Virus record (IMG/VR): IMGVR_UViG_3300042559_001081
Coordinates: 1-64,000 of that record
Source of the DNA: an uncultured virus (IMG/VR IMGVR_UViG_3300042559_001081)
Lineage: Duplodnaviria > Heunggongvirae > Uroviricota > Caudoviricetes
Length of the DNA stretch: 64,000 nucleotides
Direction: 5' to 3' (one strand)
The notes under the pieces are model-generated. The model saw nothing but the letters and a program-made list of their open reading frames with translations. It had not been told where the DNA came from and searched no databases. This document shows, piece by piece, positions 37,104 through 64,000 of the stretch (position 1 is its first letter; each line of letters opens with the position of its first letter). The translations under genes were made by a program, and so were the position numbers.

Positions 37104-37673
37104 ATGAAAATTAAGAATGTAATAATTCACGGAAAAATTTCCGACCCGTCCTACTTTGATAAAATGATGTCGCTGCTATCTGCAGATGAAAGTAAGAGAA
37201 ATGAAAATTATACATATGAAAATATGGATTTTAAAAATCATTTAACTTATGACTTGCTGCTTACCGACGACGACGAAATCATTTGTTTTAGCGGACTTTA
37301 TTCTAGACCCGGTTGGGGTGAACGCATTTATAGAAGTTCCAACAGAACTTACGTAAATCCTAAATTTAGAAATAATGCATACAACTTTTATAATCCAATG
37401 TACATTGTTCCTCATCAGGTAACTAAGTTTCAATCACACATAGATATTGTTTTTAGTTCTAGAGAGCATTATAAATCAGAATTTTTTTTTAAAAAAGCAA
37501 AGACTGTGGTTGACTTTTACAAAGATTGGGATATAATGGATAATATGATAAAAGTTGTGCCCACGTCAACTAAAAAATCTGCATATCAAAAAGTTATAGT
37601 AAAATCTTTTACTGGTGCTAAATTGCCATTTGCATCTATAACAAAAGATGAATGGAATATGTTGCCCGATTAA
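37104..37673 (+). CDS. Hypothetical protein, possibly GNAT-like
   Basis: IICFSGLY...RTYVNPKFR resembles the GNAT beta4/acyl-CoA loop (weak). Confidence 0.5.
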   Translation: MKIKNVIIHGKISDPSYFDKMMSLLSADESKRNENYTYENMDFKNHLTYDLLLTDDDEIICFSGLYSRPGWGERIYRSSNRTYVNPKFRNNAYNFYNPMYIVPHQVTKFQSHIDIVFSSREHYKSEFFFKKAKTVVDFYKDWDIMDNMIKVVPTSTKKSAYQKVIVKSFTGAKLPFASITKDEWNMLPD

Positions 37674-37761
37674 GCTGTGTTTTAAATTTTATAAAACAAC
37701 TGCCCAATCAAGTAATAGATAAACATAGAAAATTATGTAAGTTGAAAGAAATTAAAAAATA

Positions 37762-39033
37762 ATGGGTAGATTATACATAAACGATGTAGAAAAATTTATT
37801 TTACAAAAACTAAAAAAACCAGATATAACACACCCAGCAATTTATGTTAATCCAGGAATAGTAGACTTATCCACTATTCCTTATAAAATTTATAATAAGG
37901 ATCAAGATTTCTTATTACTTAAAAACGATGTAAGTAACATTTCTATAAAAGTAGAAGTTAACAACAAAATACATGATTTTTATATTATAAATAAACAATT
38001 TGTTAGCACAAATACTTGTAAGTTTTCTAAAGATTCTAATTTATCATTTGGATACGGTTTAACTGCTTTACCTAATTTGCCTTTGCTTCCTTTTATAGAA
38101 AAGTTTAAAATTCCTAAAGACATTGAAGTTATGTCATGGTGGGATGAATGTGTAAACAGTGCAAAACATATAAAAGAAAGATATAAAGATATCTTTCTTT
38201 GTTTAAGTGGAGGATTAGATTCTGAACTTATGGCTCTTGCATTTATCGATGCTAATGTTAAATTTACGGCATTTTCTTTAGTTTATAAGCATAAAGATAA
38301 AATATTAAACGAACACGATATTAAACACGCTGTTGATTTATGTAAAAAATATAACATAAAACTTGTTACCAAAGATGTGAATATTCTAGAAGATCTATAT
38401 AACAACAGACATAGAGAATATTTTATAAACGGAGTTTATGAAACTTATTTTATTCTGCCATATCTTTATACTCAACAACTTATGATCGAACACATAAACA
38501 AGTTAGGCGGCGTTCCGATCATGGCCTCAGATCAGGTCGAAATGAAACTGAATAAAGATGGCGAAGTATGCATCGGAGACTGTTCTTATTCTATAGGCCT
38601 TTCTGCTCCTACGTGGGCACACTTGACTAACAACACATGCATTTATGATTTTTTTATGTATAGTCCAGAGCAAATATATGCATTTTTAAAACTAGAAGAT
38701 GTGCAATCAACCAAGACAGTCGATTATAATTTTAAAAGAAAAGTTAGTATGATGCATGGATCTCAAAAATTAAAATTTTATGAGAAAATAACAGGCTACG
38801 AATACATCAAGGAATCACTATTAATATACTATAAAAAAGAAATGCACGAAATTACATTTAACACAATCGAAGATATTGACTGGACTAAAAAACCAATGGC
38901 ACAGTTTATACATCCAATAAAAGATATAATTTCTGAAAATGAATTTAACAACTGGCAAATTATTAGAACAACATCAAATGACTTTTTAGCAAGAGGATTT
39001 AAAGAAAATGACCCACTATACTACGACATATAA
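37762..39033 (+). CDS. PP-loop ATPase, asparagine synthase C-domain-like
   Basis: LCLSGGLDSELM; no N-terminal Cys glutaminase domain seen. Confidence 0.65.
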   Translation: MGRLYINDVEKFILQKLKKPDITHPAIYVNPGIVDLSTIPYKIYNKDQDFLLLKNDVSNISIKVEVNNKIHDFYIINKQFVSTNTCKFSKDSNLSFGYGLTALPNLPLLPFIEKFKIPKDIEVMSWWDECVNSAKHIKERYKDIFLCLSGGLDSELMALAFIDANVKFTAFSLVYKHKDKILNEHDIKHAVDLCKKYNIKLVTKDVNILEDLYNNRHREYFINGVYETYFILPYLYTQQLMIEHINKLGGVPIMASDQVEMKLNKDGEVCIGDCSYSIGLSAPTWAHLTNNTCIYDFFMYSPEQIYAFLKLEDVQSTKTVDYNFKRKVSMMHGSQKLKFYEKITGYEYIKESLLIYYKKEMHEITFNTIEDIDWTKKPMAQFIHPIKDIISENEFNNWQIIRTTSNDFLARGFKENDPLYYDI

Positions 39034-40357
39034 AAATTTTAAAAAAATAATTATCCTCGGTGCAGGTAGCATTTCTAATGCACTGTTACCGTTAATATAC
39101 AAACACATCGAAAATCCTAATGTTACAATTATTTCTGAAGATAACCGAAATAGTGACATCACTGAACAATACAATCTTACTAGAATTTTAAAAAAAATTG
39201 AGAAAGATTCTTACAAAGAGCTTCTGTCAAATTATACATCCGACGGTGATCTAGTAATTAACTTAACAGTCGACGTGTCTTCACAAGATTTAATCGATTA
39301 TTGCATGTTAAACAATTTAAATTATATAGATACATGTATTCAACCGTGGCCAGGATTTTTTGACAACTCTTCGATGTCAGACAGTGAAAGATCAAATTAT
39401 GGATTAAGAAACAAACTAATCAGTACAAAAAACGATAGAAAAAATAAATCTACAGCTATTGTATCGCACGGTGCTAATCCCGGGTTAGTAAACCACATAG
39501 TTAAAGACGGAATTTTAAGAATATCAAAAATTCTTGGATACGAAGATACACCCACAAATAAAATTGAATGGGCAGAGCTTTCTAAAAAAATAGGACTTAA
39601 AACAATACACGTATCTGAGAGAGATTCGCAATTTGACTTATCCGAAAAAAAGAAAAACGAATTCGTGAATACTTGGAGCGTTGATGGTTTTATTGCCGAG
39701 GGAATATTGCCTGCAGAACTCGGTTGGGGTACACACGAACTAGAAATGCCATCGCAAGGCTGCAACCACGAATACGGAACAAAGTCATCCATTTTCTTAA
39801 AAACTCCCGGATGTTCTACAAAAGTAAAAACATGGACGCCAAGTCATAAAAGTATCGTAGGCTATTTAATAACACATCAGGAATCTATGTCAATTGCAGA
39901 ATTTTTAACAACTGATCACTATAGACCGACTGTGCATTATGCATATTGTCCGTGTGATGTAGCATCCGAAAGTCTTGAAGAATTAGTTAAAAGAAACTTA
40001 AAAGGTCAAGATAATGCAAGAATAATGACAGACTCTCTAGTCGGCGGTATGGACGAGTTAGGAGTTTTGTTTATGGGAGATTTTGGTGCATACTGGCTAG
40101 GAAGTCAACTAAGCATCGACGAAACTAGATCATTGATTAGTCATAATAATGCAACTAGTCTACAAGTAGTTGCACCGTTGTTTGCTGCAATGCTCTGGGT
40201 TAACGAGAACACACATTGCGGATTACTAGAACCTGATGATTTGCCCTATGACTTTATTTTAGACAAGTCGATGCCGTATCTCGGTAAGTATGTATTTGTA
40301 AAATCAGACTTTACTGTGAAAGATTGGCAATTTGTAAATTTTCTAGTAAGTGAGTAA
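39008..40357 (+). CDS. hss: Homospermidine synthase
   Basis: GAGSI, YIDTCIQPW, HGANPGLV, FVNTWSVDGF, PAELGWGTHE, YRPTVHYAY, NATSLQV. Confidence 0.92.
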   Translation: MTHYTTTYKNFKKIIILGAGSISNALLPLIYKHIENPNVTIISEDNRNSDITEQYNLTRILKKIEKDSYKELLSNYTSDGDLVINLTVDVSSQDLIDYCMLNNLNYIDTCIQPWPGFFDNSSMSDSERSNYGLRNKLISTKNDRKNKSTAIVSHGANPGLVNHIVKDGILRISKILGYEDTPTNKIEWAELSKKIGLKTIHVSERDSQFDLSEKKKNEFVNTWSVDGFIAEGILPAELGWGTHELEMPSQGCNHEYGTKSSIFLKTPGCSTKVKTWTPSHKSIVGYLITHQESMSIAEFLTTDHYRPTVHYAYCPCDVASESLEELVKRNLKGQDNARIMTDSLVGGMDELGVLFMGDFGAYWLGSQLSIDETRSLISHNNATSLQVVAPLFAAMLWVNENTHCGLLEPDDLPYDFILDKSMPYLGKYVFVKSDFTVKDWQFVNFLVSE

Positions 40358-40371
40358 TCACTTACTAGAAA
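40340..40371. terminator. 14-bp inverted repeat formed by the ends of two convergent genes
   Basis: TTTCTAGTAAGTGA-GTAA-TCACTTACTAGAAA. Confidence 0.55.
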
Positions 40372-40939
40372 TAATTGTTGCAACTAAATGTATTCTTTCT
40401 TTTGTACTAGCATTAAACGCTGTATGCTTTTTCTGAGTTTCTGTATACCACCATTTATTTTTTTCTAAGTGACACACTTGATCTTCTATTACCATTAAGC
40501 ATCCTTCTTGAGTTTGCATAGGATAATGAACTCTTACATTATGGTCAACATGCCACGACAAGCATGTTTTTGGTCTTGATTTCATTATTCTAACTCTGCC
40601 CAAGACAAACATACTGTCTAATGCGTTATATGCAGTTTCAAAAAGTGTTCCATGAAATCTTGTGCATAGGTGTTTAAAATCTTCTTCTTTTAAAGGATTT
40701 TCTCGTACAACAGGATTAGTTGGAATTCCTGATTTAATATCTATCCCTGCTTTGTCCCAATCTAAATCTAAACTACCAACTCCGTGATGTATATTGTCCG
40801 GTTGATCGTCTGTAGTATTTAAACAGATTTGGTTTGGTTCTCTTGGAGAAAAATTAATAATATTCATATCTAATAATCTGTTATACTCTTCTATTAAATT
40901 AAGTATAGGCAATCCAGATATTTCGCGAAAGTTTTCCAT
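40358..40939 (-). CDS. Fe(II)/2OG oxygenase, aspartyl/asparaginyl beta-hydroxylase-like
   Basis: RVRIM, WHVD, HTAFN, RIHLV. Confidence 0.7.
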   Translation of the reverse strand: MENFREISGLPILNLIEEYNRLLDMNIINFSPREPNQICLNTTDDQPDNIHHGVGSLDLDWDKAGIDIKSGIPTNPVVRENPLKEEDFKHLCTRFHGTLFETAYNALDSMFVLGRVRIMKSRPKTCLSWHVDHNVRVHYPMQTQEGCLMVIEDQVCHLEKNKWWYTETQKKHTAFNASTKERIHLVATIISSK

Positions 40940-40952: not shown

Positions 40953-41483
40953 TTACTTTGGCAATATTGTCATTGATGTCAATCTATAACTACGAGTCAT
41001 ATTCACAGAATCTATAATAAATTGTGCAGCATCATTAGTATTTATAAAGCTAGATGGATTGACCATACTTAAAATCCGTTCAGTGCCTATATAACCAAAT
41101 CTAAACATAGTAACCTTGCACGGTTTGTTCATATTAGCTAACTGCTCGTTGGCTTTTTCTAAGCTTGCTTTTTGTGCTGAATATTCGTGAGGATGGCGTT
41201 TGATTCCATCTGTAGTATTACTACCAATGTTTATAATAATTTTGTCAAGTTCTGCCCATCTATCCCACAATTCATATAGTAACTGTGTTTGAGCATATCC
41301 ATCATGTGCATTATTAATAAACACATCGCAATGTATAGATTTGTCGATAATGCACTGTCTACTTAACGGATCTGTTATATCATATCCGGTTGATGTACTA
41401 AATCCTACAACTTTGTCATTGCCTACTAAATTAACAATTGCTTTTCCTAAACCATTAGTATGACCTGTTATTGCAATATTCAT
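40953..41483 (-). CDS. Short-chain dehydrogenase/reductase
   Basis: ITGHTNGLG, FINNA, INIGS, YSAQK. Confidence 0.88.
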   Translation of the reverse strand: MNIAITGHTNGLGKAIVNLVGNDKVVGFSTSTGYDITDPLSRQCIIDKSIHCDVFINNAHDGYAQTQLLYELWDRWAELDKIIINIGSNTTDGIKRHPHEYSAQKASLEKANEQLANMNKPCKVTMFRFGYIGTERILSMVNPSSFINTNDAAQFIIDSVNMTRSYRLTSMTILPK

Positions 41484-41500: not shown

Positions 41501-42553
41501 TTATTTTTTTAATACATCCGATAACTCTGGGATATACTTATCTATACTTTTTTTCAATATAAGATCTTGGTACTTTGTTTTTTCCACTAACATCTTATTA
41601 AGTTTGTAATTATATTTGTAATCTTTTATAAAACTAGAATTGTAATTGTTTTTATGTTTTTCTATATATTCCGGTGGCAATGAGTTTAGCGTAAATTCTA
41701 CAGGATCTTTTATAAGAACAGGATTATGTTCTAAATTAAACTCTTTACTAAAATTATTTAATTGTTCTATATTATGAAAATTATATGCCTGCACTACTGT
41801 ATGAATGTATCTCATACTTTTCTTGTTGTTGTTTTTAAAAAAATCTTCCCATTTTTCTAAATTTTTAACTACCGAGTCCCATTTACATCCATCACGTATA
41901 AATTCGTTAACTCTTTCAGTGCCGTCTATACTGTACCCAACAAAAATTTCATCTGCATTAAGTAGTTGTGTTTCGAACTTTTCTGGTGATACAGTCAGAT
42001 TTGTGTTAATGTAAAATTTTATTTTATTATCACTATGATTTTTAATAAAATTAAAAATGTTTTCTATTTCATCTGTAAGTAATGGCTCTCCACCAAGGTA
42101 TTTTATTGTATTAACCTGTGTTCCAGTAATGCTTTTTAATAATTTTTCTATATTATAGGAAACTACTCCAGCAGTTTTTAAATTATCTTCAGTTTTCTTC
42201 CAAAGACTGCTATGTTTCGGATCGCACATGCGACACCGGCTATTGCATTTATTGCTTACCGCAATTTCTAACATATCAAAGACATTTATGTCAGACTGAC
42301 AATAAAAACTATAGCTATCTCTAACAGAATGCATCCCTAGCATTTCTGTTTTCTTACACGATAAGCACCCTTTGTCCCATGAATCTCCTTCCATATTTTT
42401 TCTTATAGAAGCAATATAATCCGAATTTAAAAATTCTAAAGGTGTTAAATCATCTACTGTGTACGGACTTGTTTCAGGATATTCGCAGCAAGGTCTATAT
42501 TTTCCACTAATTTCTACACATACTTGATTATATAACGCTTTACATAAGGGCAT
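41501..42553 (-). CDS. Radical SAM protein, family A (N-terminal twitch-like Cys module)
   Basis: CNSRCRMC, LGGEP; N-terminal C..PCC..CLSC. Confidence 0.9.
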   Translation of the reverse strand: MPLCKALYNQVCVEISGKYRPCCEYPETSPYTVDDLTPLEFLNSDYIASIRKNMEGDSWDKGCLSCKKTEMLGMHSVRDSYSFYCQSDINVFDMLEIAVSNKCNSRCRMCDPKHSSLWKKTEDNLKTAGVVSYNIEKLLKSITGTQVNTIKYLGGEPLLTDEIENIFNFIKNHSDNKIKFYINTNLTVSPEKFETQLLNADEIFVGYSIDGTERVNEFIRDGCKWDSVVKNLEKWEDFFKNNNKKSMRYIHTVVQAYNFHNIEQLNNFSKEFNLEHNPVLIKDPVEFTLNSLPPEYIEKHKNNYNSSFIKDYKYNYKLNKMLVEKTKYQDLILKKSIDKYIPELSDVLKK

Positions 42554-43671
42554 TATAATTCTTTCTTAAACTTTGGAATTTTACTATCTGCACTGCTTAC
42601 ACAACTAGATGTTATGCACGGCATAGGTTTGTCAAACAATTTAAATCCTGTTTCGATATTACCCAACGGAACATCGTGGCATGAATACGAACGTTTAACC
42701 GATCCATCCGGCTCTCTAATAATTATGCCCTGGTATCCTGCATTGCAACTCCAACCTTTAAAGTTATTGAAGTTAAACGCATTAAATCGTTCGGCCTGAT
42801 CCATATACCATTTTTCGCCTTTAGAGTCGGTAAACTCTACTTGCATGTGCCACGGCACAGTAGCATCATTACGTCCTATTGTGTAGTCAGGAAGTTCAAA
42901 TGTCGGAGTCGGTCTGTTTGCCCAGATACGTTTGTTTTCTGTATATGCTCGTTGTGGCATTCCGTTCCACAGTCTCTTAAGCATATCAGGAGTATAACCA
43001 TCTACTACCCTGCTAGCAGTAGGATCACTTTGTGGCTTGAGTGTAACGTTAATTCCCTGTTCGTGGAAGAATAAAGCATTTTCCCAATCCTTTTCGAACC
43101 ATTCTGGAACCATAACCATATTGATTGTAATTTGTATATCATATTCTTGACACAGGATTAACTTGTCTGCAAAATCCTGCATCTTTTCCTTTGTGTCTAA
43201 ATGTTCTGTATGCAAGCTAGCAGTAATACTTGCACGATGAAAGGGCTTAGAATATTCTACGTATTGTTCAAACCATTTCATTGGCCTTGAACAATTTGAT
43301 GTCATATGAATGGAAGTGTAATTAGTATTAGAAACATCATCAGCAAGATATTTGAGAATATCCAAATACCCAGGGTGAAAAGTAGGCTCGCCACCAGATA
43401 AACTAAAATGAAAGCTATTAAAACCGTTATCACGTGCTTGACGTTTTATTTCGTCGATTGTTTTGAGACATAGCTCTGTAGGTCGATGATCTTTTGTGTT
43501 GGATCTTGCGTACGGCCAACAATAGCTGCATCTGTAGTTGCAGAATCTTCCAAGGAGCCAAGATACAGTAAATAAGTCTCTATATAAGAGTGTCCGTTGG
43601 CCGACTTGGACAATGTCGTCAAACGGGATTTTGGTAAAGTCATAATTGCTCCATTTTAAATCTTCGGTCAT
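42553..43671 (-). CDS. Radical SAM protein, family C
   Basis: CNYRCSYC, SGGEPT; C-terminal GWSCNAG...SC...PCITSSC. Confidence 0.9.
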   Translation of the reverse strand: MTEDLKWSNYDFTKIPFDDIVQVGQRTLLYRDLFTVSWLLGRFCNYRCSYCWPYARSNTKDHRPTELCLKTIDEIKRQARDNGFNSFHFSLSGGEPTFHPGYLDILKYLADDVSNTNYTSIHMTSNCSRPMKWFEQYVEYSKPFHRASITASLHTEHLDTKEKMQDFADKLILCQEYDIQITINMVMVPEWFEKDWENALFFHEQGINVTLKPQSDPTASRVVDGYTPDMLKRLWNGMPQRAYTENKRIWANRPTPTFELPDYTIGRNDATVPWHMQVEFTDSKGEKWYMDQAERFNAFNFNNFKGWSCNAGYQGIIIREPDGSVKRSYSCHDVPLGNIETGFKLFDKPMPCITSSCVSSADSKIPKFKKEL

Positions 43672-43677: not shown

Positions 43678-43705
43678 AGTATAACACCTTTCTCGTATTT
43701 GTCAA
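43678..43705 (-). promoter_or_regulatory. Sigma70 extended -10 promoter, 6 nt before ATG 43671
   Basis: Minus strand TTGACA-16-TATACT with TG; TTAAATA also at 43715-43721. Confidence 0.55.
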
Positions 43706-43736: not shown

Positions 43737-44699
43737 ATGATTTATGACGAGCTCACTCATTTTAAAAACTATGTATTTGTAGATTGGGATATAAGTAGTC
43801 GCTGCAATTACAATTGCTATTACTGCACACCCGAGTCACATGACGGAAAAATAAATTTTCCCGATATAACTGTTGCAAAAAAAGTAGTCGAAAAAATAGA
43901 GAAAGAATACAGTTCTTGTAAAGAATTTGCAGTGTATAATCTTTTAGGTGGAGAACCTACTATATGGAATGATTTGCCAGAATTTAGCAAATATATCAAA
44001 TCTATTAACAACAAAAATATATTACAATTGTTGACAAACGGCAATAGAACACTAAGATGGTGGGAAAATTCTGCACCATACATAGATAAAATTATTGTTA
44101 GTGTGCATGTTGCACAAACCGATATTGTTAAATTAGTAGAAAAGTTTAACAAGCTAGCAGATAAAATCTATATAGACTTTCAATTTGCAATGGATGTTGC
44201 AGTGTTTGATCAAGCCGTTGAAGATTATTATTATGCTTATAACAACCTGCATGAAAATATTTGTTTATATTCTAAGCCTTTACGGAAAGTGTTAAATAAC
44301 ACCGAATTGATGCCATATACAGAATTGCAAATTGAAACTATTAAAAAGTTACCATCTAAATGGAGCAGATCTATCGAAATATTCGAAACTCCTATGGTTA
44401 AAAAGCTTAACGGAACAGTTGTAGACCCTGCTGTTAATATTGGTAAATTAGTTTTATCAAAAGAAAACAACTGGTACGGATGGGCTTGTTGGATTGGCAT
44501 AGATACTATTACTATTAATCGATACGGAAATGTTAAAATAGGTTCTGGTTGCAACCCCGACCTAGTGCTCGGTAATATAAATTCTTTAGATTTTAAATTT
44601 CCACTGATTCCTGTCAAGTGTAAATATACTACTTGTGGATGTTTTGCTGATATATCTACAACAAAAAAATTAAACTACACAGGACCTATGATTCTTTAA
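43737..44699 (+). CDS. Radical SAM protein, family C
   Basis: CNYNCYYC, LGGEPT; C-terminal GWACWIG...GC...CKYTTCGC. Confidence 0.9.
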   Translation: MIYDELTHFKNYVFVDWDISSRCNYNCYYCTPESHDGKINFPDITVAKKVVEKIEKEYSSCKEFAVYNLLGGEPTIWNDLPEFSKYIKSINNKNILQLLTNGNRTLRWWENSAPYIDKIIVSVHVAQTDIVKLVEKFNKLADKIYIDFQFAMDVAVFDQAVEDYYYAYNNLHENICLYSKPLRKVLNNTELMPYTELQIETIKKLPSKWSRSIEIFETPMVKKLNGTVVDPAVNIGKLVLSKENNWYGWACWIGIDTITINRYGNVKIGSGCNPDLVLGNINSLDFKFPLIPVKCKYTTCGCFADISTTKKLNYTGPMIL

Positions 44700-46781: not shown

Positions 46782-46792
46782 TTTAAAGTTTT

Positions 46793-47915: not shown

Positions 47916-47938
47916 TATAAATATATGCATGTATTTAA
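47916..47938. promoter_or_regulatory. Opposed late-type promoters between divergent genes
   Basis: TATAAATA on + at 47916-47923; TTAAATA on - at 47932-47938. Confidence 0.55.
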
Positions 47939-55238: not shown

Positions 55239-56448
55239 TTTGTTTTACCTTAGTTGCCCAATTTGCTAATTCTGGATTATAATCATAAATGTTAAATCCT
55301 CTTAGAGAATTAATATAATCGATCCATCGCAATGCATGAGAATTGTCTTCATCAGTTGCCGAATATTTTAAAGTCTTTAATCTTTCTGTTCTTTCAAAAA
55401 TTATAGGATTTTTTAAATATTCTGTATTGTTAAAAAAATCATTTACTAATCTATCTATGTCGTTTTGTGGAACGATACTATATGCAGAATACTTTGGAAG
55501 AAAAACATAGTAATAAGCAAATACATCTACTAATCCTGTTTTTAACAACTCGTTTGCTGATTCCTTAAGAGTCCATAATGTATAGAGTGAAACTGTACTA
55601 CTTGCTATAACTCTTTTTCCTGTTCTTCTTAAATATGTTTCCATATTTTCAAGTGTTTGTTCATAAGGAGTACTACGTATCCATTCGTAGATTTTTCCTG
55701 TGCCGTCAAGACTTGCAGTAACTAATAATTCAACATTGGGATTTTTATTTAACTTTTCTAAAATGTCCCAAATTTCTTCTGTAATTACTGCCCAATTAGA
55801 AACAATTAAAATACGCATTTCGTATTTTTTATCTACAATTTCTTTTAAAACTCTTATATTTCTTGGATCTGCAAAGGGCTCGCCCCCTTTAATAAGTAAA
55901 AACTTAATCGACGGTAACACTTCTAAAATCTTTTTCATGTCGTCGTCGGTGGCCTGGAAAGCCTTTGTATGTAAGTTTGATAATCCAGAATTTTCTCTAA
56001 ATTCTAAACCTTCTTTTTTTGCACGTTTATCTAGTCCTATCCATTTACTGCTATAGATACTTCCGCACATAGCACAGCTTTGATTACATAAGTTACTTGG
56101 AGTATACTCTAGTGATAAAATTTGCTTTCTCGAAGAATTAAAATTTTCATCCGACCAAGGAAGATTAACATAATGATCGTTGTCTATATGGGCAGGAATT
56201 CCATTTTCTCTATTGTCTTTGCAAGCTACACATGCACTTGGCCATTCACCTTTTTTAAATTTATTACGAATGCCATTTATTATGTCATTGTTGTAATAGT
56301 CAGTTAATGATGCTACCTCGCTAATATATGACCCGTGTTTTTTGCCAACTGTGCATAATTTTAAATCTCCCAATGGACCAATGTTAAGTTGGCTCCACGG
56401 GGCTTTACACATCATCGGTCTACGAGATTGATATTCTTTATCAGACAT
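55228..56448 (-). CDS. Radical SAM protein, family A
   Basis: CKAPW..LCT..CVAC; CNQSCAMC, KGGEP; start moved to MSDKEY after SD GGGGA. Confidence 0.9.
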   Translation of the reverse strand: MSDKEYQSRRPMMCKAPWSQLNIGPLGDLKLCTVGKKHGSYISEVASLTDYYNNDIINGIRNKFKKGEWPSACVACKDNRENGIPAHIDNDHYVNLPWSDENFNSSRKQILSLEYTPSNLCNQSCAMCGSIYSSKWIGLDKRAKKEGLEFRENSGLSNLHTKAFQATDDDMKKILEVLPSIKFLLIKGGEPFADPRNIRVLKEIVDKKYEMRILIVSNWAVITEEIWDILEKLNKNPNVELLVTASLDGTGKIYEWIRSTPYEQTLENMETYLRRTGKRVIASSTVSLYTLWTLKESANELLKTGLVDVFAYYYVFLPKYSAYSIVPQNDIDRLVNDFFNNTEYLKNPIIFERTERLKTLKYSATDEDNSHALRWIDYINSLRGFNIYDYNPELANWATKVKQNAR

Positions 56449-57322
56449 TATATCCCCTTGCGTCAAATCTATTATCAACTAGCATTCTTAAAGGAGTTCT
56501 AACACTTACAAAAGTTCCATTATGAGATGCAATATTTATAGAATCAGTTTCTTCTAATTTAAAATCTTTGCAAACTTTTGTATATTCTTTATTATAATTT
56601 TTCCACCAAAAGTCCGAGCCAAACCTGTCTATCATATTACACCCAATCCACATGTCGCTTACGTTATTATATCCAAAGTTATTCATAATATTTATAGGAC
56701 CATCGATTTGTTCTTTACTGTATCGAACACCAATTCTTTGAGATCCCATCGAAAAGGCTTTACTTAGGCTAATTGAAAACGTCTTGATAGCAGAATGTGA
56801 CAAATCTATATCAATGTTTTTACACTGTCCTAGCCATGCTGCATCTATGTGAACGTCGATAGAGTTTTTGTAACAAAAGTCTAAGAGTCGATCTATGTCG
56901 GGTATATTCCCTGCTGTTTTAACAGAAGGATAAGAAATAACTAGAACTGATCCTGACGGTATTGCAGAATAATGTGTTACTTTTAAAATTTTTGGATTTA
57001 ATCTCCAATGATATGCATACTCGCCTTCGAATATTACTAACTTATTACTGTATCTGTAATGCAGTTCGTCTATTTGCTGTGAAACACCTAATATAGCATC
57101 AGTAAATTTAAAAGACTCTAAATTTTTAATATTATTTAATTTAGAATTTTTAATCCAAGCTGTAACTTTTTCTATAAAGTATTTTGTATATTGATTGCTA
57201 TCTGTTGGATATTCTTTCATATCTAGAGAATCTCGAAACCCAATAATTTTACCAACTAACATAGGAGGAATTCTAGATGTTAAAAACTTTTCTACACTTA
57301 AGTTATTATAATCCATATACAT
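56441..57322 (-). CDS. PLP-dependent enzyme (fold I aminotransferase/decarboxylase-like)
   Basis: HIDAAW, SLSKAF, RIG. Confidence 0.75.
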   Translation of the reverse strand: MYMDYNNLSVEKFLTSRIPPMLVGKIIGFRDSLDMKEYPTDSNQYTKYFIEKVTAWIKNSKLNNIKNLESFKFTDAILGVSQQIDELHYRYSNKLVIFEGEYAYHWRLNPKILKVTHYSAIPSGSVLVISYPSVKTAGNIPDIDRLLDFCYKNSIDVHIDAAWLGQCKNIDIDLSHSAIKTFSISLSKAFSMGSQRIGVRYSKEQIDGPINIMNNFGYNNVSDMWIGCNMIDRFGSDFWWKNYNKEYTKVCKDFKLEETDSINIASHNGTFVSVRTPLRMLVDNRFDARGYNV

Positions 57323-58673: not shown

Positions 58674-58687
58674 TTATAAATCCTATA

Positions 58688-59737
58688 TTAAGAAAGTTGC
58701 TTATCGTTTTTATTTTTTCCATGTCCGCTACTAAACTCAAATTTTTTGCCACAAGTTCTACCGCATGTATATATTCTTTTAAATGTATCGTCTTGATTAT
58801 TCCAGGAATTGTGTAAATATGAATTAAAAAAGTCATGTTTTAGTACATCCCAACCGTGTATTCTCATATCATTAAAACTTTCCCCATAAAGATTTTTTAT
58901 ATGATCAAAGCTAGGTTGTTGTTTGTTTTTATGATGGAAGTAACTTGGGGCCCCAAGCCAACAACACGGCCAAAGTTTCATCGTCATATCAACAAAAACA
59001 GTTTTATCAATTTTATATTTACAGCTAATCGGTGTTGTTAAAACATAATTTTCAAAATCTTTAATTGAATCTTTATCTTTCTTGTTATGATTAGTAGGAG
59101 TATCCTCAACAACGTTGCCTTTTTTTGTAACAGTATTTTTTTGATCTTGATCTGCAAAACGAGCAGTATATTTAACTGTGAATTTTTTAAATCCAAGACT
59201 GTTTGCTAAGTTTTGTGCTTGTTCAATTTGATGATAGTTGTGTTGAAACTCTATAAATGCCCATTCTGCATGGCCCCCGGCCGAAATAAATGCTTCTGCA
59301 TTTTTAATTATTTTATTAAAATCACTACCAACTCTGTATAATTGATTTGTGTCTTCTAATCCGTCAATACTAAAAATAATTGACAACTTTTCTGCTGACT
59401 TTTTGGCTAATTCTGCCCACCATTCTGGCTTACGCATACTTCCATTTGTTGCAATTCTTACATGCTTTACATTTTTTGTTAAGCAATATTCATGAGCTGC
59501 GTCAAAGGTAGGACTTGCAATCACATCGCCGTAATTTCCGCAATGAAAGATTGTTACCTGATTCTCTTTGAAAGGTTGCAAAATTATCTCATAGTCTGAT
59601 ACAGTTAGATCAGTTATTGGCATGCTAGGATTTAATGTATTGTTAAACATCCTAGCACATTGAGGACATGCACAATTACATCTACTTGTATGATCTATTT
59701 GTATTTTTTGAATTTCTTCTAAATTTAAATAGTTCAC
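58688..59737 (-). CDS. Radical SAM protein, family B
   Basis: CNCACPQC, CGNYGD; ISC...WPCC...CGRTC. Confidence 0.9.
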   Translation of the reverse strand: MNYLNLEEIQKIQIDHTSRCNCACPQCARMFNNTLNPSMPITDLTVSDYEIILQPFKENQVTIFHCGNYGDVIASPTFDAAHEYCLTKNVKHVRIATNGSMRKPEWWAELAKKSAEKLSIIFSIDGLEDTNQLYRVGSDFNKIIKNAEAFISAGGHAEWAFIEFQHNYHQIEQAQNLANSLGFKKFTVKYTARFADQDQKNTVTKKGNVVEDTPTNHNKKDKDSIKDFENYVLTTPISCKYKIDKTVFVDMTMKLWPCCWLGAPSYFHHKNKQQPSFDHIKNLYGESFNDMRIHGWDVLKHDFFNSYLHNSWNNQDDTFKRIYTCGRTCGKKFEFSSGHGKNKNDKQLS

Positions 59738-60387
59738 AGTCTATCAAATCCCCATCGACGTTCAGCACAAAACCAGCAATTACCACAATGTTTTTCAAAG
59801 TTGTCAGTGTATTTCTCACAACTTCTAGTCATAGGAAATAATGTATCAAAGACATTAAAATAACGGTACAATTCTGCTACATCTCTTTTATTAAAGTTAA
59901 TCAATGGATGACATGCCGTTCCTTCGTAGATGTTTTTTAGTCTTTCTCTGTCTGGTGGATCAGTCCATCCTCGCCAATATACACTTCTCGGTATTGCGTT
60001 TTTTGGAGGATTTTGTGTTATTCCAGCAAAATGAAATTGAATTTTATTGTTTTTATATAAGTTATTAGTTAATAGTTGTTGTGTTTTAATATAATTTTCA
60101 TCTTCTGGCAAAGGGCTATATGCTGTCTCGTGTTCCAAAAAAATATCGCCAAACTCTTTTTTATAAAACTCGACTATTTTTTTAGCAAACTGAATTTGAA
60201 AAGCTTTGCCTTCTTGATCAACAGTTATTGGAACAATTTTTAAGTCAGGCCTTTCTTCAACTACATATTTAGATAGTATGTATCCTGTAATTGCACTATC
60301 TGCACCCCCTGAGATTTTTAATCCCACAGATGAAACATTATTAAAAACTACAATATTTAGATTGTGTTTGCTATGAGGAATTATCAT
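59734..60387 (-). CDS. QueC-like PP-loop ATPase, paralog 3
   Basis: SGGADS, TQNPP, TRSCE, CGNCWFCAERRWG. Confidence 0.8.
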   Translation of the reverse strand: MIIPHSKHNLNIVVFNNVSSVGLKISGGADSAITGYILSKYVVEERPDLKIVPITVDQEGKAFQIQFAKKIVEFYKKEFGDIFLEHETAYSPLPEDENYIKTQQLLTNNLYKNNKIQFHFAGITQNPPKNAIPRSVYWRGWTDPPDRERLKNIYEGTACHPLINFNKRDVAELYRYFNVFDTLFPMTRSCEKYTDNFEKHCGNCWFCAERRWGFDRL

Positions 60388-61799
60388 TGTAAAATCTCGG
60401 TAAAGATAGGAAAAACTTTTAAAAATTTATCTTCCCATTGTCGTTGTTTGTTAATAAGAGATATGTATTCTTTTGTTTCTGGTAATCTTTCCGACCAATC
60501 TTCACTGTTCATAAAATTTATAATACCTTTGAATCTTTTAATTCCGTAAGGATTTTCTAAAAACTGTTCTTTAGAAATGTTGTTTTCTTTTACTCCAGTA
60601 AACTGTTGCCAATTGTCTTCTATCCATGGATAAAAATCGTTTTCGTATTTGTCTGTAATTTGTTTTTTAACATTTTTCGGCAATACTTTTACATTTAATT
60701 GAGGAGGCCAGTACGCAAAGTGCATGTTTATGCCGCCGGCTCCTAGTGGCCAAGAATTTATCTTTTTAAAACCTTGTTGAGTTTTCCATTTTACAAACTC
60801 CGGTATATAAGCAATATTAAGAGCCATTATAGTAGTTGCCGTTGTTACTTCAACTTGAGGTGCAGTATTGTCTAGTTTCCAAAACACTTCTTCCTGGTGT
60901 TGCCACTGACTAGGATATCGAATATAATCATTGTGTTCTCCGTGTGCATCTATACTATAATGAAATCTAACACGTTTAAACTCTGCCCATAGATCAAATA
61001 AATCACTACGCCATTCAACTGCATTGCTATTGTAACGTAACTCTATATTCTTTGCATACCCACGTCTAATGCATTCTTCTAATAGATCATAATGTTCATC
61101 TATAATAAGACTTTCGCCTCCGGCAAAGTATAGTTGATACATATGAGGAATTTGTTCAAACAAGTCTTGCCAGAATTTTGGATTATTTTTATGCCAATTA
61201 TAGCTAGCACCGTGTACTCTGCCTTTATTTTCCCACTGACTAGTACCTTTTAATCTTTCATTTGTTATTTGAGGGTACAAAGAATTCCATTCTTTTACCC
61301 AGCCGCTCGAATCGTGAGGACTACACATTACACAAGCAAGCTGACACTTTGTACCCATACGCAAGTCAATATACCGTATTTTCGGGGGTATAGAACCGTC
61401 AGCGGCAGTTTCATTAACTAATTCTTGTAGGTCAAAGCGGCTTGCCCAATAATCGGTTTCCCAATTTCTTTTACTAAGATGTCCAGCTTCTTCTTCTTTG
61501 TAACACTTTAGACAACTAGCAGGCTTTTCGCCACGAAGCATCATCTTACGAACATTACGCATATATCCGCTGTTCCATGCTTCTTCTAGGCTAGTATGAT
61601 TAAAATTAGCAGGAACGCCCGAGTCGTTCTTTACGACTCCAACTTCGCCACCACCGATTTTGTTACTGCTGTCTGGATCTTGAACACTGCTGGCGTTACT
61701 TGTGCAACATGTTCGCATTTTTCCATCCGGTCTACTTGATAAGTGTAGCCACGGCAATGCACAAAAGGTAGGCGAAATATGATTGTATTTTTCTGACAT
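60384..61799 (-). CDS. Radical SAM protein, family A
   Basis: FCALPW..TCC..CLKC; CQLACVMC, AGGES. Confidence 0.92.
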   Translation of the reverse strand: MSEKYNHISPTFCALPWLHLSSRPDGKMRTCCTSNASSVQDPDSSNKIGGGEVGVVKNDSGVPANFNHTSLEEAWNSGYMRNVRKMMLRGEKPASCLKCYKEEEAGHLSKRNWETDYWASRFDLQELVNETAADGSIPPKIRYIDLRMGTKCQLACVMCSPHDSSGWVKEWNSLYPQITNERLKGTSQWENKGRVHGASYNWHKNNPKFWQDLFEQIPHMYQLYFAGGESLIIDEHYDLLEECIRRGYAKNIELRYNSNAVEWRSDLFDLWAEFKRVRFHYSIDAHGEHNDYIRYPSQWQHQEEVFWKLDNTAPQVEVTTATTIMALNIAYIPEFVKWKTQQGFKKINSWPLGAGGINMHFAYWPPQLNVKVLPKNVKKQITDKYENDFYPWIEDNWQQFTGVKENNISKEQFLENPYGIKRFKGIINFMNSEDWSERLPETKEYISLINKQRQWEDKFLKVFPIFTEILQ

Positions 61800-61804
61800 G
61801 TTAA

Positions 61805-61812
61805 TACTTATT
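61805..61812 (-). promoter_or_regulatory. Late-type promoter AATAAGTA, 5 nt before ATG 61799 (leaderless)
   Basis: Minus strand AATAAGTA-TTAAC-ATG; no SD. Confidence 0.55.
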
Positions 61813-62887
61813 TAAACTGTTCTGCAAAAGGATCAAACTCGATACCACATTTCATAGCACAAACTTTTAATTTTCCATTTTCGTAACTGTTTTCATGCCA
61901 CGACGCTTCTATAAGATCAAAAATTTCTGTAGAAAATACACGTTCTAAACCATGTATCTTAGCATTTATTGCATCTTTGCCGCCGGCAAAATTAATAAAT
62001 TGCCATATTTGTTCTTGTTTAGGATCTTTTTGCCACCATTTGTACATTCGACCAGCAGTCCAACAACAAGGCATTGCTATCCCTTCTGCTGTAATAAACA
62101 AACTGCCTTCGTCTTTTACCTTGCATCTGATAGGAGTTTGTTGATAGTAAGCATCCATGCTTCCGTATTTTATTTCTAACAATGTTTGCTTCTTTAATGC
62201 ATTGTTTACATATTTGTCATCGGGCTTTTTAAGTTCGGTTGTTTGATTACCTTTTCGATCAATTGCTTGGTGTGATTCTTTTTTCTTGCTATCTTGCGTA
62301 ATAAATCTACCAGTTTTTTTAGCAACAAACTTTTCAAAGCCTAATTCCTTTGACAACGCTTCTGCGTCTTCGACCTGATGTTGGTTATGTTCAAATATTA
62401 AAAAATCCCAACGTGCTCTGCCGCCGGCTGCAATAAATGCTCGCATACTACGTTCGACTATATTCCAGTTAACACCTTGACGATACAAATGATTTGTATC
62501 ACCGAGTCCGTCTACACTAAAAATAACAGTACCTGCTCTTCCAAGTATAGTTGCAAGTTCTTGCCACCATTCGGGATCACGGGCGCCAGCATTTGTATTC
62601 ATGCTTAACCACATCTTAGGATTATTTTGTCTAAAATAGCGAAATATTTCTAGTGTGTCTCGAGCAACAATTGGATCTCCTAAATTACCGCACATATACA
62701 TGGTGTTTAGCTGTGCTATAAATTCCGGTGTGAATATTTTTTTACAATCATCGAGTGTTAGTTCACTTAAATCTATATGAGGATTTAGTGCTCCGCCGTT
62801 TTGATTACGGTCACACATAGGGCAACTAGCTTGACAGTTTTGTGTTACTTCTAAGTGTATGGTTTTTATATCTTTATATTCATACAT
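61808..62887 (-). CDS. Radical SAM protein, family B
   Basis: CQASCPMC, CGNLGDP; IRC...MPCC...CAMKC. Confidence 0.92.
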   Translation of the reverse strand: MYEYKDIKTIHLEVTQNCQASCPMCDRNQNGGALNPHIDLSELTLDDCKKIFTPEFIAQLNTMYMCGNLGDPIVARDTLEIFRYFRQNNPKMWLSMNTNAGARDPEWWQELATILGRAGTVIFSVDGLGDTNHLYRQGVNWNIVERSMRAFIAAGGRARWDFLIFEHNQHQVEDAEALSKELGFEKFVAKKTGRFITQDSKKKESHQAIDRKGNQTTELKKPDDKYVNNALKKQTLLEIKYGSMDAYYQQTPIRCKVKDEGSLFITAEGIAMPCCWTAGRMYKWWQKDPKQEQIWQFINFAGGKDAINAKIHGLERVFSTEIFDLIEASWHENSYENGKLKVCAMKCGIEFDPFAEQFK

Positions 62888-63107
62888 CGTATATTAACTC
62901 TACATCCTTTCCTGGACCTATTTTACTAGGAAGATCACCGTATTGCTCTATGTACCATTTAATTACAGCTATATACCAATTTTGACTATTATGATGTGCC
63001 TGTTTATTAAATTGAAAAATATTATTATTAGTTGCTTGTATTGTGCTTAACGCACGGGCACTTTCTTTTTGTAAATCTCTTAAACTTAACTTTGTTAAAT
63101 CATTCAT
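62880..63107 (-). CDS. Small hypothetical protein in the island
   Basis: Overlaps both neighbours; SD GGAG absent but ATGA-coupled. Confidence 0.65.
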   Translation of the reverse strand: MNDLTKLSLRDLQKESARALSTIQATNNNIFQFNKQAHHNSQNWYIAVIKWYIEQYGDLPSKIGPGKDVELIYDV

Positions 63108-63787
63108 TCTAATTCTAACATCCCATTAATGTTTTTAATGCCTTCGCTTGAAAAATTAAACATTCTTTCATTAAAAATTTCTTGTAGTTTGTCTTTATTT
63201 AAAACGTTTATTATTTTATATGGAGTTTTTCCAGGTTCGAATGTAGGACGTGGCGGAGAATCTTCAAATGGTAAATTTAATTTTTTATAATCAGTATAAC
63301 TATCAAAAGAAAGATCTTCAAAATAAATTATGTCGTTATGAATGTTATTTTTTTTTAATTCAGCAAACTTTGTCCAAAGATCAATTTTTCTTTCTAAAAC
63401 TTCTGTAAATTGATACTCGTCTATACTAATAGTTGTTTTTTCGTAAGGAAAATCGTTAAAATTTTGTAATTTATTAGCTACAACATGACTAAATGTATTT
63501 TGAAACAGATCTTTTCTTAAAAGAAAGATTTTATACCAAATGTTGTTATTTAAAAAAAATTTAATAGTCTTAGGTCTCTTAATCTCATATATTTGATTTA
63601 AGTGAGTTTTTAATATAACATTTTTATGTAACAAACAGGTTTTAATTATACCTTTTACATACGTGTCTGGCTGTTCAGTCATAAAGGGTTCTGTAAGAAA
63701 AAACGTATTCCTATAAAAATAACGATAGATGGTTCTAGCAAAATAACTACTTCCTGTTCTTGTACTAGATATTATAAGTATTTTCAT
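63104..63787 (-). CDS. Sulfotransferase (Stf0-like)
   Basis: SSTRTGSSYF, LTEPF, LLRKDL...SH, IYFEDL. Confidence 0.7.
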   Translation of the reverse strand: MKILIISSTRTGSSYFARTIYRYFYRNTFFLTEPFMTEQPDTYVKGIIKTCLLHKNVILKTHLNQIYEIKRPKTIKFFLNNNIWYKIFLLRKDLFQNTFSHVVANKLQNFNDFPYEKTTISIDEYQFTEVLERKIDLWTKFAELKKNNIHNDIIYFEDLSFDSYTDYKKLNLPFEDSPPRPTFEPGKTPYKIINVLNKDKLQEIFNERMFNFSSEGIKNINGMLELE

Positions 63788-64000
63788 TATTTTATTCCAA
63801 TTTTCATAAATCTTGTATACTTAGGTAAAACTAATTCACCCTTAAAAAGTGTATTAGTCATAGGTGCTTTTTTATCAAACTCGTCTAAATCTGTTGAACA
63901 ATTAACATGTTCTGCAACTTCAAAATAATTATTTCCTTGTAAAATTACTAATTTTCCTGTTGGAATTTTTTCATACCAATCTTTAAAATTTTCTATATGC
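63787..64000 (-). CDS. Class I SAM methyltransferase-like protein, C-terminal part (truncated by window edge)
   Basis: Manual translation HIENFKDWYEKIPTGKLVILQGNNYF..HVNC...YTRFMKIGIK; TAATG-coupled to the sulfotransferase. Confidence 0.55.
   Translation of the reverse strand, partial: HIENFKDWYEKIPTGKLVILQGNNYFEVAEHVNCSTDLDEFDKKAPMTNTLFKGELVLPKYTRFMKIGIK

Follow-up and report, generated by a model that had tools for sequence, protein, structure and literature searches.

A radical SAM-rich gene island between the fiber genes of a jumbo phage, possibly encoding a pathway that builds and edits sugars

A ~52 kb gene island located between fiber genes of an uncultured jumbo phage (IMG/VR record IMGVR_UViG_3300042559_001081) encodes 17 radical S-adenosylmethionine (SAM) enzymes together with eight glycosyltransferase-like proteins. 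The stretch analyzed here (the window) comprises the first 64 kb of this 138,699-bp contig, which has an estimated CheckV completeness of 39%; the island extends from 37.1 kb to ~89.7 kb of the contig and makes up roughly 15% of a genome of ~330–350 kb. We consider the chances about even that the island encodes a soluble pathway for the construction of a sugar structure and for its editing by radical chemistry, with a neighboring structural protein as the most likely acceptor. The substrate class, each of the chemical steps and the acceptor are what we infer from the enzyme families and folds, their conservation, several domain fusions and the presence of a counterpart in Bdellovibrionota.

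The first-pass annotation of the window had described a phage-encoded tailoring island that adjoins a fiber gene and runs past the window edge. Both points are borne out, with fiber genes found on both sides of the island and with three additional radical SAM genes beyond the window. The present analysis adds the Bdellovibrionota counterpart, the nature of a small protein that we denote s75, a pair of GT8-like genes, a mini-module in a cultured phage and a mixed set of promoter-like sites. Genes are designated below by their first coordinate; nearly all of them are encoded on the minus strand from 120.8 kb down to 52.9 kb of the contig.

All 14 open reading frames (ORFs) with a CxxxCxxC motif that had been listed as radical SAM (rSAM) enzymes between 41501 and 62887 match PF04055 at E of 4e-4 or lower, and each of them contains the motif. 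The Pfam cut-off is passed by 9 of the 14; among those below it, 57306 and 60384 are strong members of NF033640, and 52903, 58688 and 61808 are paralogs of 46793, which itself is above the cut-off. The four paralog families proposed earlier are recovered by all-against-all BLAST, namely A (41501, 51755, 54015, 55228, 57306, 60384), B (46793, 52903, 58688, 61808), C (44696, 47966) and D (42553, 43737). The three rSAMs encoded beyond the window are 67193 and 82751 of family A and 76485 of the B12 type. Both the motif and an rSAM-core match are present in all 17 proteins, which by type include 8 enzymes with an N-terminal twitch domain (family A), 4 short enzymes of family B, 3 of the B12 type and 2 of family D. 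The rSAM genes of the window are as follows.

41501..42553, minus strand: rSAM of family A (N-terminal twitch, NF033640), 200 bits to NF033640 (cut-off 170), CxxxCxxC at residue 103
42553..43671, minus strand: rSAM of family D, a core gene, 58.5 bits to PF04055
43737..44699, plus strand: family D paralog, 37.4 bits to PF04055, 24% identical to 42553
44696..46174, minus strand: B12-binding rSAM of family C, methyltransferase-like, with B12-binding and Radical_SAM domains; the PhpK-type and RiPP (peptide made on the ribosome and modified after translation) C-methyltransferase subfamilies are best in NCBIfam, far below the cut-off
46793..47902, minus strand: rSAM of family B, 37.7 bits to PF04055, paralog of 61808 and 58688
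47966..49480, plus strand: B12-binding rSAM of family C with B12-binding and Radical_SAM domains, 33% identical to 44696
51755..52939, plus strand: rSAM of family A (N-terminal twitch), 304 bits to NF033640, with a SPASM-type match at residues 9–74, N-terminal of the rSAM domain
52903..54012, minus strand: rSAM of family B, 25.1 bits to PF04055 (below cut-off), CxxxCxxC at residue 17, paralog of 58688
54015..55238, minus strand: family A-like rSAM, 132.6 bits to NF033640 (below the cut-off of 170) and 34.7 bits to PF04055
55228..56478, minus strand: rSAM of family A (N-terminal twitch), 195 bits to NF033640
57306..58673, minus strand: rSAM of family A (N-terminal twitch), a core gene, 368 bits to NF033640
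58688..59737, minus strand: rSAM of family B, 28.7 bits to PF04055, 33% identical to 61808
60384..61799, minus strand: rSAM of family A, the most conserved core gene, 414 bits to NF033640
61808..62887, minus strand: rSAM of family B, a core gene and the partner of s75, present in 79 of 80 viral loci with a median identity of 70%

Seven family A proteins (41501, 51755, 55228, 57306, 60384, 67193 and 82751) score 195–414 bits against NF033640, and 54015 only 133. All eight contain four N-terminal cysteines, CxxxCxxC and a GGE motif; C13, C31, C96 and C99 (60384 numbering) are invariant among the eight paralogs and are the predicted ligands of an auxiliary cluster positioned N-terminal of the rSAM core. 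Accordingly placed SPASM-type Pfam matches (residues 7–100) were detected in 51755, 57306 and 60384. No member of NF033640 scores above the cut-off in 14 control genomes, and literature searches yielded no characterized member. The combination of PF02310 and PF04055 in 44696, 47966 and 76485 is the architecture of B12-dependent rSAM methyltransferases; 76485 reaches 242 bits against the KedN5 subfamily (cut-off 700), and none of the B12 rSAMs attains the cut-off of a characterized subfamily.

The SAM demand of such a set might be met by the phage itself. The gene at 26617-27711 on the plus strand encodes an S-adenosylmethionine synthetase of full length, in which the three MetK domains are all present (E of 1e-31 to 1e-56), and it is plausible that this enzyme supplies SAM for the 17 rSAMs and the methyltransferases.

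The eight glycosyltransferase (GT)-like genes of the island include two GT-A-like genes (G), two GT8-like genes and four GT-B-like genes (E). The G proteins are 84124 and the C-terminal part of 64616. In the AlphaFold model of 84124 (pLDDT 84.7), residues 20–172 align to many GT-A enzymes with Z of 8–10, and the nucleotidyltransferases IspD and MobA score similarly; a DxD motif (D81/D83 within VDGDN) is conserved. Both G proteins are putative glycosyltransferases with a predicted GT-A fold and a DxD motif, and the top Foldseek matches of G include the peptide S-glycosyltransferases SunS and ThuS. When the profile of the 85641/86473 family, in which an LDTDxLV motif is conserved, was compared with the PDB, 19 of the 19 matches were glycogenins (GT8; E of 3e-5 to 1e-3), covering the N-terminal 90 positions only. 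The E family consists of four paralogs (72025, 74432, 78407, 80628) with a common (S/T)EK motif; among its listed Foldseek matches, all are GT-B glycosyltransferases or pseudo-glycosyltransferases except for Legionella SidI and the accessory secretion protein Asp1 (best E ~1e-4, prob 1.00), and in the Atlas the family is linked to GT10 at only 0.79. Profile searches of the PDB with G (alignment A3), the methyltransferase-like protein (A2), the 87726/88778 family (A9) and 42553 gave nothing usable.

Sugar-nucleotide enzymes are encoded both inside and outside the island. Inside it, we identified a nucleoside diphosphate (NDP)-sugar dehydrogenase (73260) and an epimerase/dehydratase (79669). A second block on the plus strand, at 13117-21582, encodes a cytidylyltransferase-like protein, a phosphomannomutase, a truncated UGDH of 269 aa that retains the N-terminal and central domains only, a GT1 glycosyltransferase and another epimerase/dehydratase. 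No membrane proteins are apparent among the genes from 37104 to 89695; the single borderline hydrophobic segments found in 4 island genes were taken for buried strands. Given the eight GT-like genes, the NDP-sugar enzymes and the lack of membrane proteins, a carbohydrate substrate is supported. The carbohydrate part of the earlier proposal, virion glycans, therefore fits, and its virion part, that is, the acceptor, is inferred.

The region at 13–27 kb had previously been interpreted as a separate DNA-modification locus. This assignment has to be revised, given that most of the region consists of NDP-sugar genes, with the addition of FolE, a QueE-like gene and the SAM synthetase. GTP cyclohydrolase I and the QueE-like gene, which belong to 7-deazaguanine precursor synthesis, are located at 24705-26550 (plus strand), yet no TGT/DpdA was found in a twin record (G001; 330,024 bp, 93% complete), in which the 60384 gene is 100% identical and the genes within 10 kb of it are 99–100% identical. 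That the island itself serves DNA hypermodification, for example the synthesis of glycosylated or aminated bases, is the least probable of the explanations considered here and, in our opinion, highly improbable. The presence of FolE and the QueE-like gene is compatible with such a role, as is the involvement of phage GTs, rSAMs and pyridoxal phosphate (PLP) enzymes in known thymidine and cytosine hypermodifications. However, neither PF01702 (TGT/DpdA) nor PF00303 (ThyA-like) is matched at E of 0.01 or lower in the twin, divergent forms being possible; bacterial chromosomes contain the same core, surrounded by GT2 and envelope-type genes; and the island is tied to fiber genes rather than to replication genes. 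The preference expressed in the first-pass annotation for decoration of virions or a small molecule over DNA modification agrees with these findings, because a near-complete genome that lacks TGT/DpdA and a ThyA-like hydroxymethylase makes base hypermodification unlikely.

Additional information on the pathway comes from the small protein encoded immediately upstream of 61808.

62880..63107, minus strand: s75, a phage-specific 75-aa accessory protein or domain, the stop of which overlaps the start of 61808 by 8 nt

Family searches, including those of PHROGs, assigned s75 to no family. It is encoded in 66 of the 80 viral loci (64 loci at 45% identity or more) and, among the 76 loci found in genomes, only in four phage-like contigs of metagenome-assembled genomes (MAGs). 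In 46 of 63 cases, it comes after the methyltransferase-like gene, and the two overlap, in most instances, by a fixed 14 nt. Among 22 longer homologs, 17 are fused to an rSAM and 2 to UGDH-like domains; one fusion of each kind was checked in detail. In the first (P0122), s75 is N-terminal, with residues 2–74 being 71% identical to s75 and residues 76–436 being 63% identical to 61808. In the second (P0143), a UGDH-like protein, s75 occupies residues 250–323, the C-terminus. In this protein of 323 aa and in P0142, s75 is apparently found in place of the C-terminal UDP-binding domain of UGDH; these proteins are encoded on 29 contigs, including Tara and NCBI records. Because s75 is fused elsewhere to a B-type rSAM or to a UGDH-like protein, we propose that it is an accessory or docking domain of enzymes; by the same token, its fusion to both partners ties the B-type rSAM to NDP-sugar metabolism. 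Thus, s75 is a predicted phage-only accessory domain that is translationally coupled to the methyltransferase-like gene. We also considered the possibility that s75 is a precursor peptide and rejected it in view of the fusions to rSAM B and the UGDH-like protein.

The same fusions bear on the possibility that the island performs RiPP-like side-chain tailoring of fiber or other virion proteins, such as epimerization, C-methylation, hydroxylation or cross-linking. Several features point in this direction: the NCBIfam matches of the A, B and C rSAMs to peptide maturases (StsB, PapB, YhhB and the RiPP C-methyltransferase TIGR03975), all below cut-off; the AspH-like gene and a P4H/YhhC-like 2-oxoglutarate (2OG) oxygenase; the fiber genes on the island flanks; and the appearance of SunS and ThuS among the top matches of G. 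Nevertheless, among 63 proteins of the island and its flanks, there is no RRE/PqqD-like domain, Nif11/NHLP family, leader peptidase or repeated precursor gene, and s75, the only conserved small ORF, is an enzyme domain. Furthermore, the peptide-maturase similarities are generic rSAM-core matches far below the cut-offs, and a carbohydrate substrate is indicated by the eight GT-like genes, the NDP-sugar enzymes and the abundance of GT2 enzymes in the bacterial counterparts. Given the lack of an RRE or a precursor along with the s75 fusions, RiPP-like tailoring is disfavored, and we regard it as quite improbable.

The rSAM 60384 has 2116 homologs in the database at E of 1e-10 or lower, the best 120 of which are 68–88% identical to it, and matches 225 viral stretches. 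The viral neighborhoods were counted in 80 loci with 10-kb flanks. The recurrent neighbors are B 61808 (79 loci), the methyltransferase-like gene (77 loci, at any identity), G and often UGDH, whereas the other A, B, D and PP-loop genes vary from phage to phage; 42553 has a median identity of 81.5% in the 11 viral loci where it has a match at 45% or more. The conserved core consists of the GT-A-like gene, the methyltransferase-like gene, rSAMs A60384, B61808, D42553 and A57306, and the PLP-like gene. The paralogs are only 20–35% identical to one another, in contrast to the 70–88% identity at which each core orthologous group is maintained across phages, which suggests that the core rSAMs catalyze fixed, distinct steps. 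The island had been envisaged as a combinatorial system; this is not supported for the core, where the paralogs form separate, individually conserved orthologous groups, although the accessory set does vary between phages. Considering that the island occupies ~15% of the genome and that its core is kept at 70–88% identity across hundreds of environmental contigs, its role in phage fitness appears to be strong, perhaps in host recognition or in evading recognition by the host or by grazers.

The same core is present in predatory bacteria. A scan of one genome per prokaryote species with the alignment of 60384 orthologs (A5) yielded 76 loci; five of these are phage-like contigs in MAGs, and 65 of the remaining 71 belong to Bdellovibrionota, with several located on Mb-size chromosomes and one coming from an isolate. 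In the loci shown, identity to the Bdellovibrionota homologs is 52–61% for A60384, 58–66% for D42553, 39–44% for A57306 and 43–48% for B61808. Among the 71 bacterial loci, B is represented in 51, D in 49, the methyltransferase-like family in 29, G in 22 and the 56441-like family in 14, and at least three island-type rSAMs are encoded in 54. The neighbors include many Pfam GT2 enzymes and QueC-like PP-loop proteins and, in single loci, AsnB, a carbamoyltransferase, an AT3-SGNH acyltransferase, a PMT_2 GT-C enzyme, a SIS domain, methyltransferases, GNATs and AspH-like fusions. The location of the bacterial core among GT2-type enzymes provides independent support for a glycoconjugate pathway. In a quick tree, the phage clade is nested within the Bdellovibrionota diversity (two of every three phage orthologs were left out of the tree by thinning, and the phage-like MAG contigs were counted as phage). 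Reciprocal monophyly is not rejected by the approximately unbiased (AU) test (p 0.63), and the score of the constrained tree was even higher; therefore, no donor of a transfer is claimed. Large Peptidase_S74 (endosialidase-chaperone) fiber-like proteins are encoded within 10 kb of the cluster in three Bdellovibrio-type genomes (L123:17257-21324, L127:17311-19866, L151:1998-5306), an adjacency that we treat as a lead, not as support.

The occurrence of the core in predators also fits a different product, a diffusible small molecule resembling an aminoglycoside or a pseudo-oligosaccharide, made during infection or Bdellovibrionota predation and unattached to the virion. All the enzymes look soluble, no acceptor protein or lipid-carrier enzyme was found, and the mix of twitch rSAMs, a PLP-like protein, B12 rSAM methylases, GT-B proteins (including a fold match to the pseudo-glycosyltransferase VldE), an NDP-sugar dehydrogenase and an epimerase is reminiscent of aminoglycoside pathways; AcrB-type pumps are encoded beside the cluster in 2 bacterial loci. 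Still, two such neighbors in 71 loci may be due to chance, and no cyclitol synthase, exporter or self-resistance gene was recognized in the phage island. Eight GT-like genes suggest a larger glycan than is usual for such compounds, and a free metabolite would leave unexplained why the position between fibers is conserved among phages as different in habitat as freshwater and marine ones and a soil Ralstonia phage. On balance, we consider a free small molecule unlikely.

Under the hypothesis that we prefer, of a sugar structure built and then edited on a neighboring structural protein, the GT-like proteins would use nucleotide sugars that come in part from the NDP-sugar dehydrogenase, epimerases and phosphomannomutase of the phage. 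The 17 rSAMs would then alter individual sugar positions, in partnership with the PLP-like enzyme, the QueC-like PP-loop ATPases of the amidotransferase type, the methyltransferase-like protein and the Fe/2OG-type oxygenases. The chemistry to be expected would include oxidation to keto sugars followed by amination, as well as epimerization, decarboxylation or deoxygenation, C-methylation and amidine-type amidation. The phage SAM synthetase would feed the SAM demand, and s75 would serve as a docking or accessory domain of the island enzymes. The likeliest acceptor would be a structural protein encoded beside the island, either the fibers or 87726 and 88778, small Ser/Thr/Gly-rich proteins preceded by a late-type promoter motif.

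Several observations weigh against this hypothesis. No island rSAM reaches the NCBIfam cut-off of any characterized sugar-acting family, the matches to BlsE, AprD4 and viperin being far below; the best below-cut-off matches of the B12 rSAMs include RiPP C-methyltransferases; and the N-terminal twitch profile has, by sequence, no solved relative except SkfB (E 0.0075). Confidence in the E-family model is low (pLDDT 62.9, and below 50 for the N-terminal half), and the putative methyltransferase and PLP assignments come from motifs read by eye and a lead from the Atlas. The end of the island that encodes homospermidine synthase does not fit a sugar pathway, and AspH-like and P4H-like oxygenases are classically protein hydroxylases. 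Finally, the adjacency of fiber genes does not show that fibers are the target, and in bacteria, S74 fiber-like neighbors were limited to 3 loci (37 large proteins and, separately, 84 proteins from 7 loci were inspected).

A broader and more speculative scenario, which we find unlikely, is that jumbo phages and predatory Bdellovibrionota share an ancient kit in which ordinary sugars are transferred to an acceptor and are then converted in place by a set of rSAMs, those with an N-terminal twitch and their partners, to amino, deoxy, epimerized, C-methylated and amidino sugars, instead of being made via dedicated nucleotide-sugar pathways. The phage s75 would dock the enzymes to each other or to the acceptor, and the product would decorate the structures by which phage or predator contacts the surface of its prey.

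With respect to the timing of expression, the first-pass annotation had placed late promoters at 43724, 47916/47932 and 61805 and assumed late transcription. Only 47916 matches TATAAATA, which is missing at 43724 and 61805. The promoter-like sites identified before rSAM genes are the following, each of them a predicted site.

47916..47923, plus strand: TATAAATA, a T4-late-type promoter-like motif before 47966; in the part of the island covered by the window, the only exact match that lies between genes; a consensus match only
43678..43705, minus strand: sigma-70-type promoter-like site before 42553-43671, with TTGACA, a 16-nt spacer and TATACT plus TG (11/12), in a 65-bp divergent intergenic region; a consensus match only
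68738-68765 of the contig, minus strand: sigma-70 consensus site before the rSAM gene 67193-68719, with TTGACA, a 16-nt spacer and TATAAT (12/12), in a 42-bp gap

With 6 copies in the window and 10.6 expected, TATAAATA shows no enrichment. A sigma-70-type consensus site is also present before 87318, and ATAAATA is found upstream of 35592, 87726, 88778 and 89724. Thus, late timing is not supported, with one of three sites fitting the late consensus and with near-perfect sigma-70-type sites before the rSAM genes 42553 and 67193. The predicted site before 67193 would allow transcription of part of the island by the host polymerase, that is, early in infection, and given that sites of both types are present, the island may be transcribed both early and late. 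In 35535-35591 of the window, the ATAAATA 41 nt upstream of 35592 lies in the loop formed by a perfect inverted repeat of 13 bp (CCCCTAGTGTGAT ... ATCACACTAGGGG). Another hairpin, of 14 bp, is located at 40340-40371 between convergent genes.

Early expression would also suit remodeling of the host surface (lipopolysaccharide, capsule or glycoprotein) during infection, such that superinfection is blocked or the adsorption of progeny is changed. The bacterial counterparts include envelope-type enzymes (AT3-SGNH acyltransferase, PMT_2 GT-C and many GT2) that are consistent with this function. The phage island, however, encodes no membrane protein, flippase, polymerase or polyprenyl-phosphate transferase, and the phage has a strictly lytic, T4-like appearance. 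Temperate phages are the best-known agents of surface conversion. We therefore regard remodeling of the host surface as very unlikely.

The other genes of the island within the window, along with the left flanking gene, are listed below.

35592..37037, plus strand: fiber-like structural gene of the left flank, with a chlorovirus glycoprotein repeat (27.9 bits, cut-off 27) and Mtd_N (E 6.6e-5)
37104..37673, plus strand: 189-aa ORF, the first of the left plus-strand module, with no Pfam, NCBIfam or PHROGs family
37762..39033, plus strand: PP-loop ATPase of 423 aa, with matches to ATP_bind_3, NAD_synthase and QueC (E of 1e-4 to 1e-3) at residues 139–226 and weak TilS/MnmA/LarE-like matches
39008..40357, plus strand: homospermidine synthase, E of 1.2e-106 to 2ph5, with matches to 13 more solved homospermidine synthases
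40358..40939, minus strand: Asp/Asn beta-hydroxylase-like cupin (Fe/2OG type), PF05118 at E of 5e-10
40953..41483, minus strand: short protein weakly similar to short-chain dehydrogenases/reductases (SDR), adh_short at E of 0.004, with homologs in 6 of the 71 bacterial loci
46158..46844, minus strand: 228-aa ORF with 8 cysteines and no family in Pfam, NCBIfam or PHROGs
49489..50199, plus strand: 236-aa ORF for which no family was found
50201-51007 and 51016-51771, plus strand: two QueC-like PP-loop ATPase paralogs, with QueC, PP-loop and NAD_synthase matches for 51016; 50201 is 29% identical to 51016 and 59734
56441..57322, minus strand: PLP-enzyme-like by motif only (SxSK lysine and Asp in alignment A7), with homologs in 14 of the 71 bacterial loci
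59734..60387, minus strand: QueC-like PP-loop ATPase, QueC at E of 1.5e-6 and phrog_1550 (QueC-like)
63104..63787, minus strand: 227-aa ORF for which no family was found, present in 3 of the 80 viral loci
63787..64000 (whole gene 63787-64635), minus strand: class-I methyltransferase-like core gene, the C-terminal part of which is in the window, with no Pfam match

The inventory of tailoring enzymes given in the first-pass annotation changes in several respects. The homospermidine synthase is confirmed (E of 1e-106 to solved enzymes of this activity), and no counterpart of its gene was detected up to 10 kb from the core in any of the 80 related viral loci. Of the PP-loop ATPases, the three QueC-like paralogs (50201, 51016 and 59734) and the larger protein 37762 stand, the AsnB likeness of the latter being not shown. 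The PLP enzyme reduces to the SxSK/Asp motif of 56441 and insignificant aminotransferase and Pyridoxal_deC matches, and the SDR to a weak match. One of the two Fe/2OG-like oxygenases is where it had been placed (the AspH-like 40358), and the second, of the P4H type (71271-72011), is among the island ORFs beyond the window, many of which belong to no family. The methyltransferase-like ORF exists and crosses the window edge; by inspection of alignment A2, a GxG-like motif and acidic motifs are conserved, and the Atlas adds no more than a lead, the closest of its named clusters having a score of 0.95 and 21% of the members of that cluster carrying Methyltransf_31. No sulfotransferase was found in the island, the sole such match being located outside it at 30827-31510 and scoring below the cut-off, and no GNAT-like ORF was found in the island. 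Pfam matches of the leftover ORFs at E of 1 or lower are faint hints only, to arginine deiminase-like proteins for 69607 (E 0.015) and to GDSL-like proteins for 68762 (E 0.14).

As for the flanks, a gene 31% identical to 35592 adjoins the island core in one of the viral loci (L032). The right end of the island is followed by three tail-fiber genes (89724-95091) matching Collar, Peptidase_G2 and tail-fiber PHROGs, then by an ORF of 4603 residues and baseplate genes. This ORF (95726-109537 of the contig, minus strand), located between the tail fibers and a baseplate wedge gene, contains a CBM5/12 module and an FG-GAP repeat, and its domain content suggests that it may be a giant fiber or adhesin. 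A weak homolog is ORF361 (2541 aa) of Ralstonia phage RsoM2USA.

The structural genes of the phage are of the T4 type (gp23-like major head protein, portal, prohead protease, baseplate wedge and hub proteins), as are the gp55-like late sigma factor, the gp46/47-like nuclease subunits and the family-B DNA polymerase. The head protein is 66–72% identical to those of Vibrio phage 2.275.O, Sinorhizobium phage Phosso, Pseudomonas phage PA5oct and phages GAP32, CBB and BF, which identifies the phage as a Rak2/GAP32-like jumbo myovirus. A megablast search of 1-25000 and 37104-62000 against 50,697 phage records gave no DNA match. The stretch 54001-64000 is present, at half or more of the sampled words, in 12 metagenome runs of lake water or rivers from many studies, 4 of which may represent the source sample; accordingly, this appears to be a widespread freshwater phage. 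There is no RNA run among the matching sequencing runs listed for this stretch, all of which are lake and river metagenomes. Elsewhere in the window, a peptide deformylase gene is followed by a gene for a 752-aa Lon/ATP-dependent protease-like protein (248-3017, plus strand), and a MoxR-like ATPase gene adjoins that of a DUF2201 metallopeptidase/VWA protein (31580-34061, plus strand).

If the proposed pathway is confirmed, it would represent, to our knowledge, the largest set of rSAMs in a single viral pathway, and it would be the first sign of sugar editing by viruses through oxygen-independent radical chemistry. It would also provide a function for NF033640, an uncharacterized rSAM family with a circularly permuted auxiliary-cluster domain. 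Compared to this catalogued family, the island is distinguished by eight anciently diverged copies in one operon-like block.

The earlier statement that no characterized system has this architecture agrees with our literature searches, which found none (subscription journals were outside their coverage). The nearest parallels are virus-encoded systems of protein glycosylation, namely, the capsid glycans of chloroviruses and virion glycosylation in mycobacteriophages, where, as in the island, soluble viral GT-A and GT-B enzymes are encoded beside structural genes. PBCV-1 A64R and a GT of chlorovirus NY2A are among the fold matches of the GT-like proteins, and the flanking gene 35592 contains a chlorovirus glycoprotein repeat. 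We know of no radical SAM enzymes in these glycosylation systems, whereas here the rSAMs (17) outnumber the GT-like genes (8). Sugar-acting rSAMs of the twitch or B12 type are known, among them BtrN, HygY, NeoN, BlsE, AprD4 and GenK. The aminoglycoside and nucleoside antibiotic pathways combine, similarly to the island, twitch or B12 rSAMs with an aminotransferase-like enzyme, GT-B, NDP-sugar dehydrogenase and epimerase, and weak matches to BlsE, AprD4 and the KedN5 type, all far below the family cut-offs, were detected in the island. Unlike in those pathways, the twitch domain is N-terminal rather than C-terminal, the genes belong to a phage and lie beside fibers, and no cyclitol- or scaffold-forming enzyme was recognized.

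The uncharacterized clusters of Bdellovibrionota differ from the phage island in that they lack s75, encode ordinary Pfam GT2 enzymes in place of the phage E family and, in single loci, include membrane enzymes (AT3-SGNH, PMT_2) that are missing in the island. Among cultured phages, a 2025 paper on Aeromonas phage vB_AerVM_332-Vera reports eight rSAM genes inside a structural cluster with tail-fiber genes, described there as ‘highly unusual’. This phage had no match in the phage collection searched, and its rSAMs are candidate homologs of those of the island. A closer parallel is Ralstonia phage RsoM2USA, in which ORFs 347–355 encode a fiber, an 87318-like protein, two GT8-like proteins, G (45%), an A-type rSAM (35% to 82751), G' (43%) and a methyltransferase-like protein (29%). 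The RsoM2USA paper is silent on this module, with 0 occurrences of the word ‘radical’ in the passages searched. The gene order is the same as in the island, with a single rSAM and without s75, B and A60384. In the search for the product, Bdellovibrionota offer the core in culturable organisms, and RsoM2USA offers a minimal module with one rSAM.

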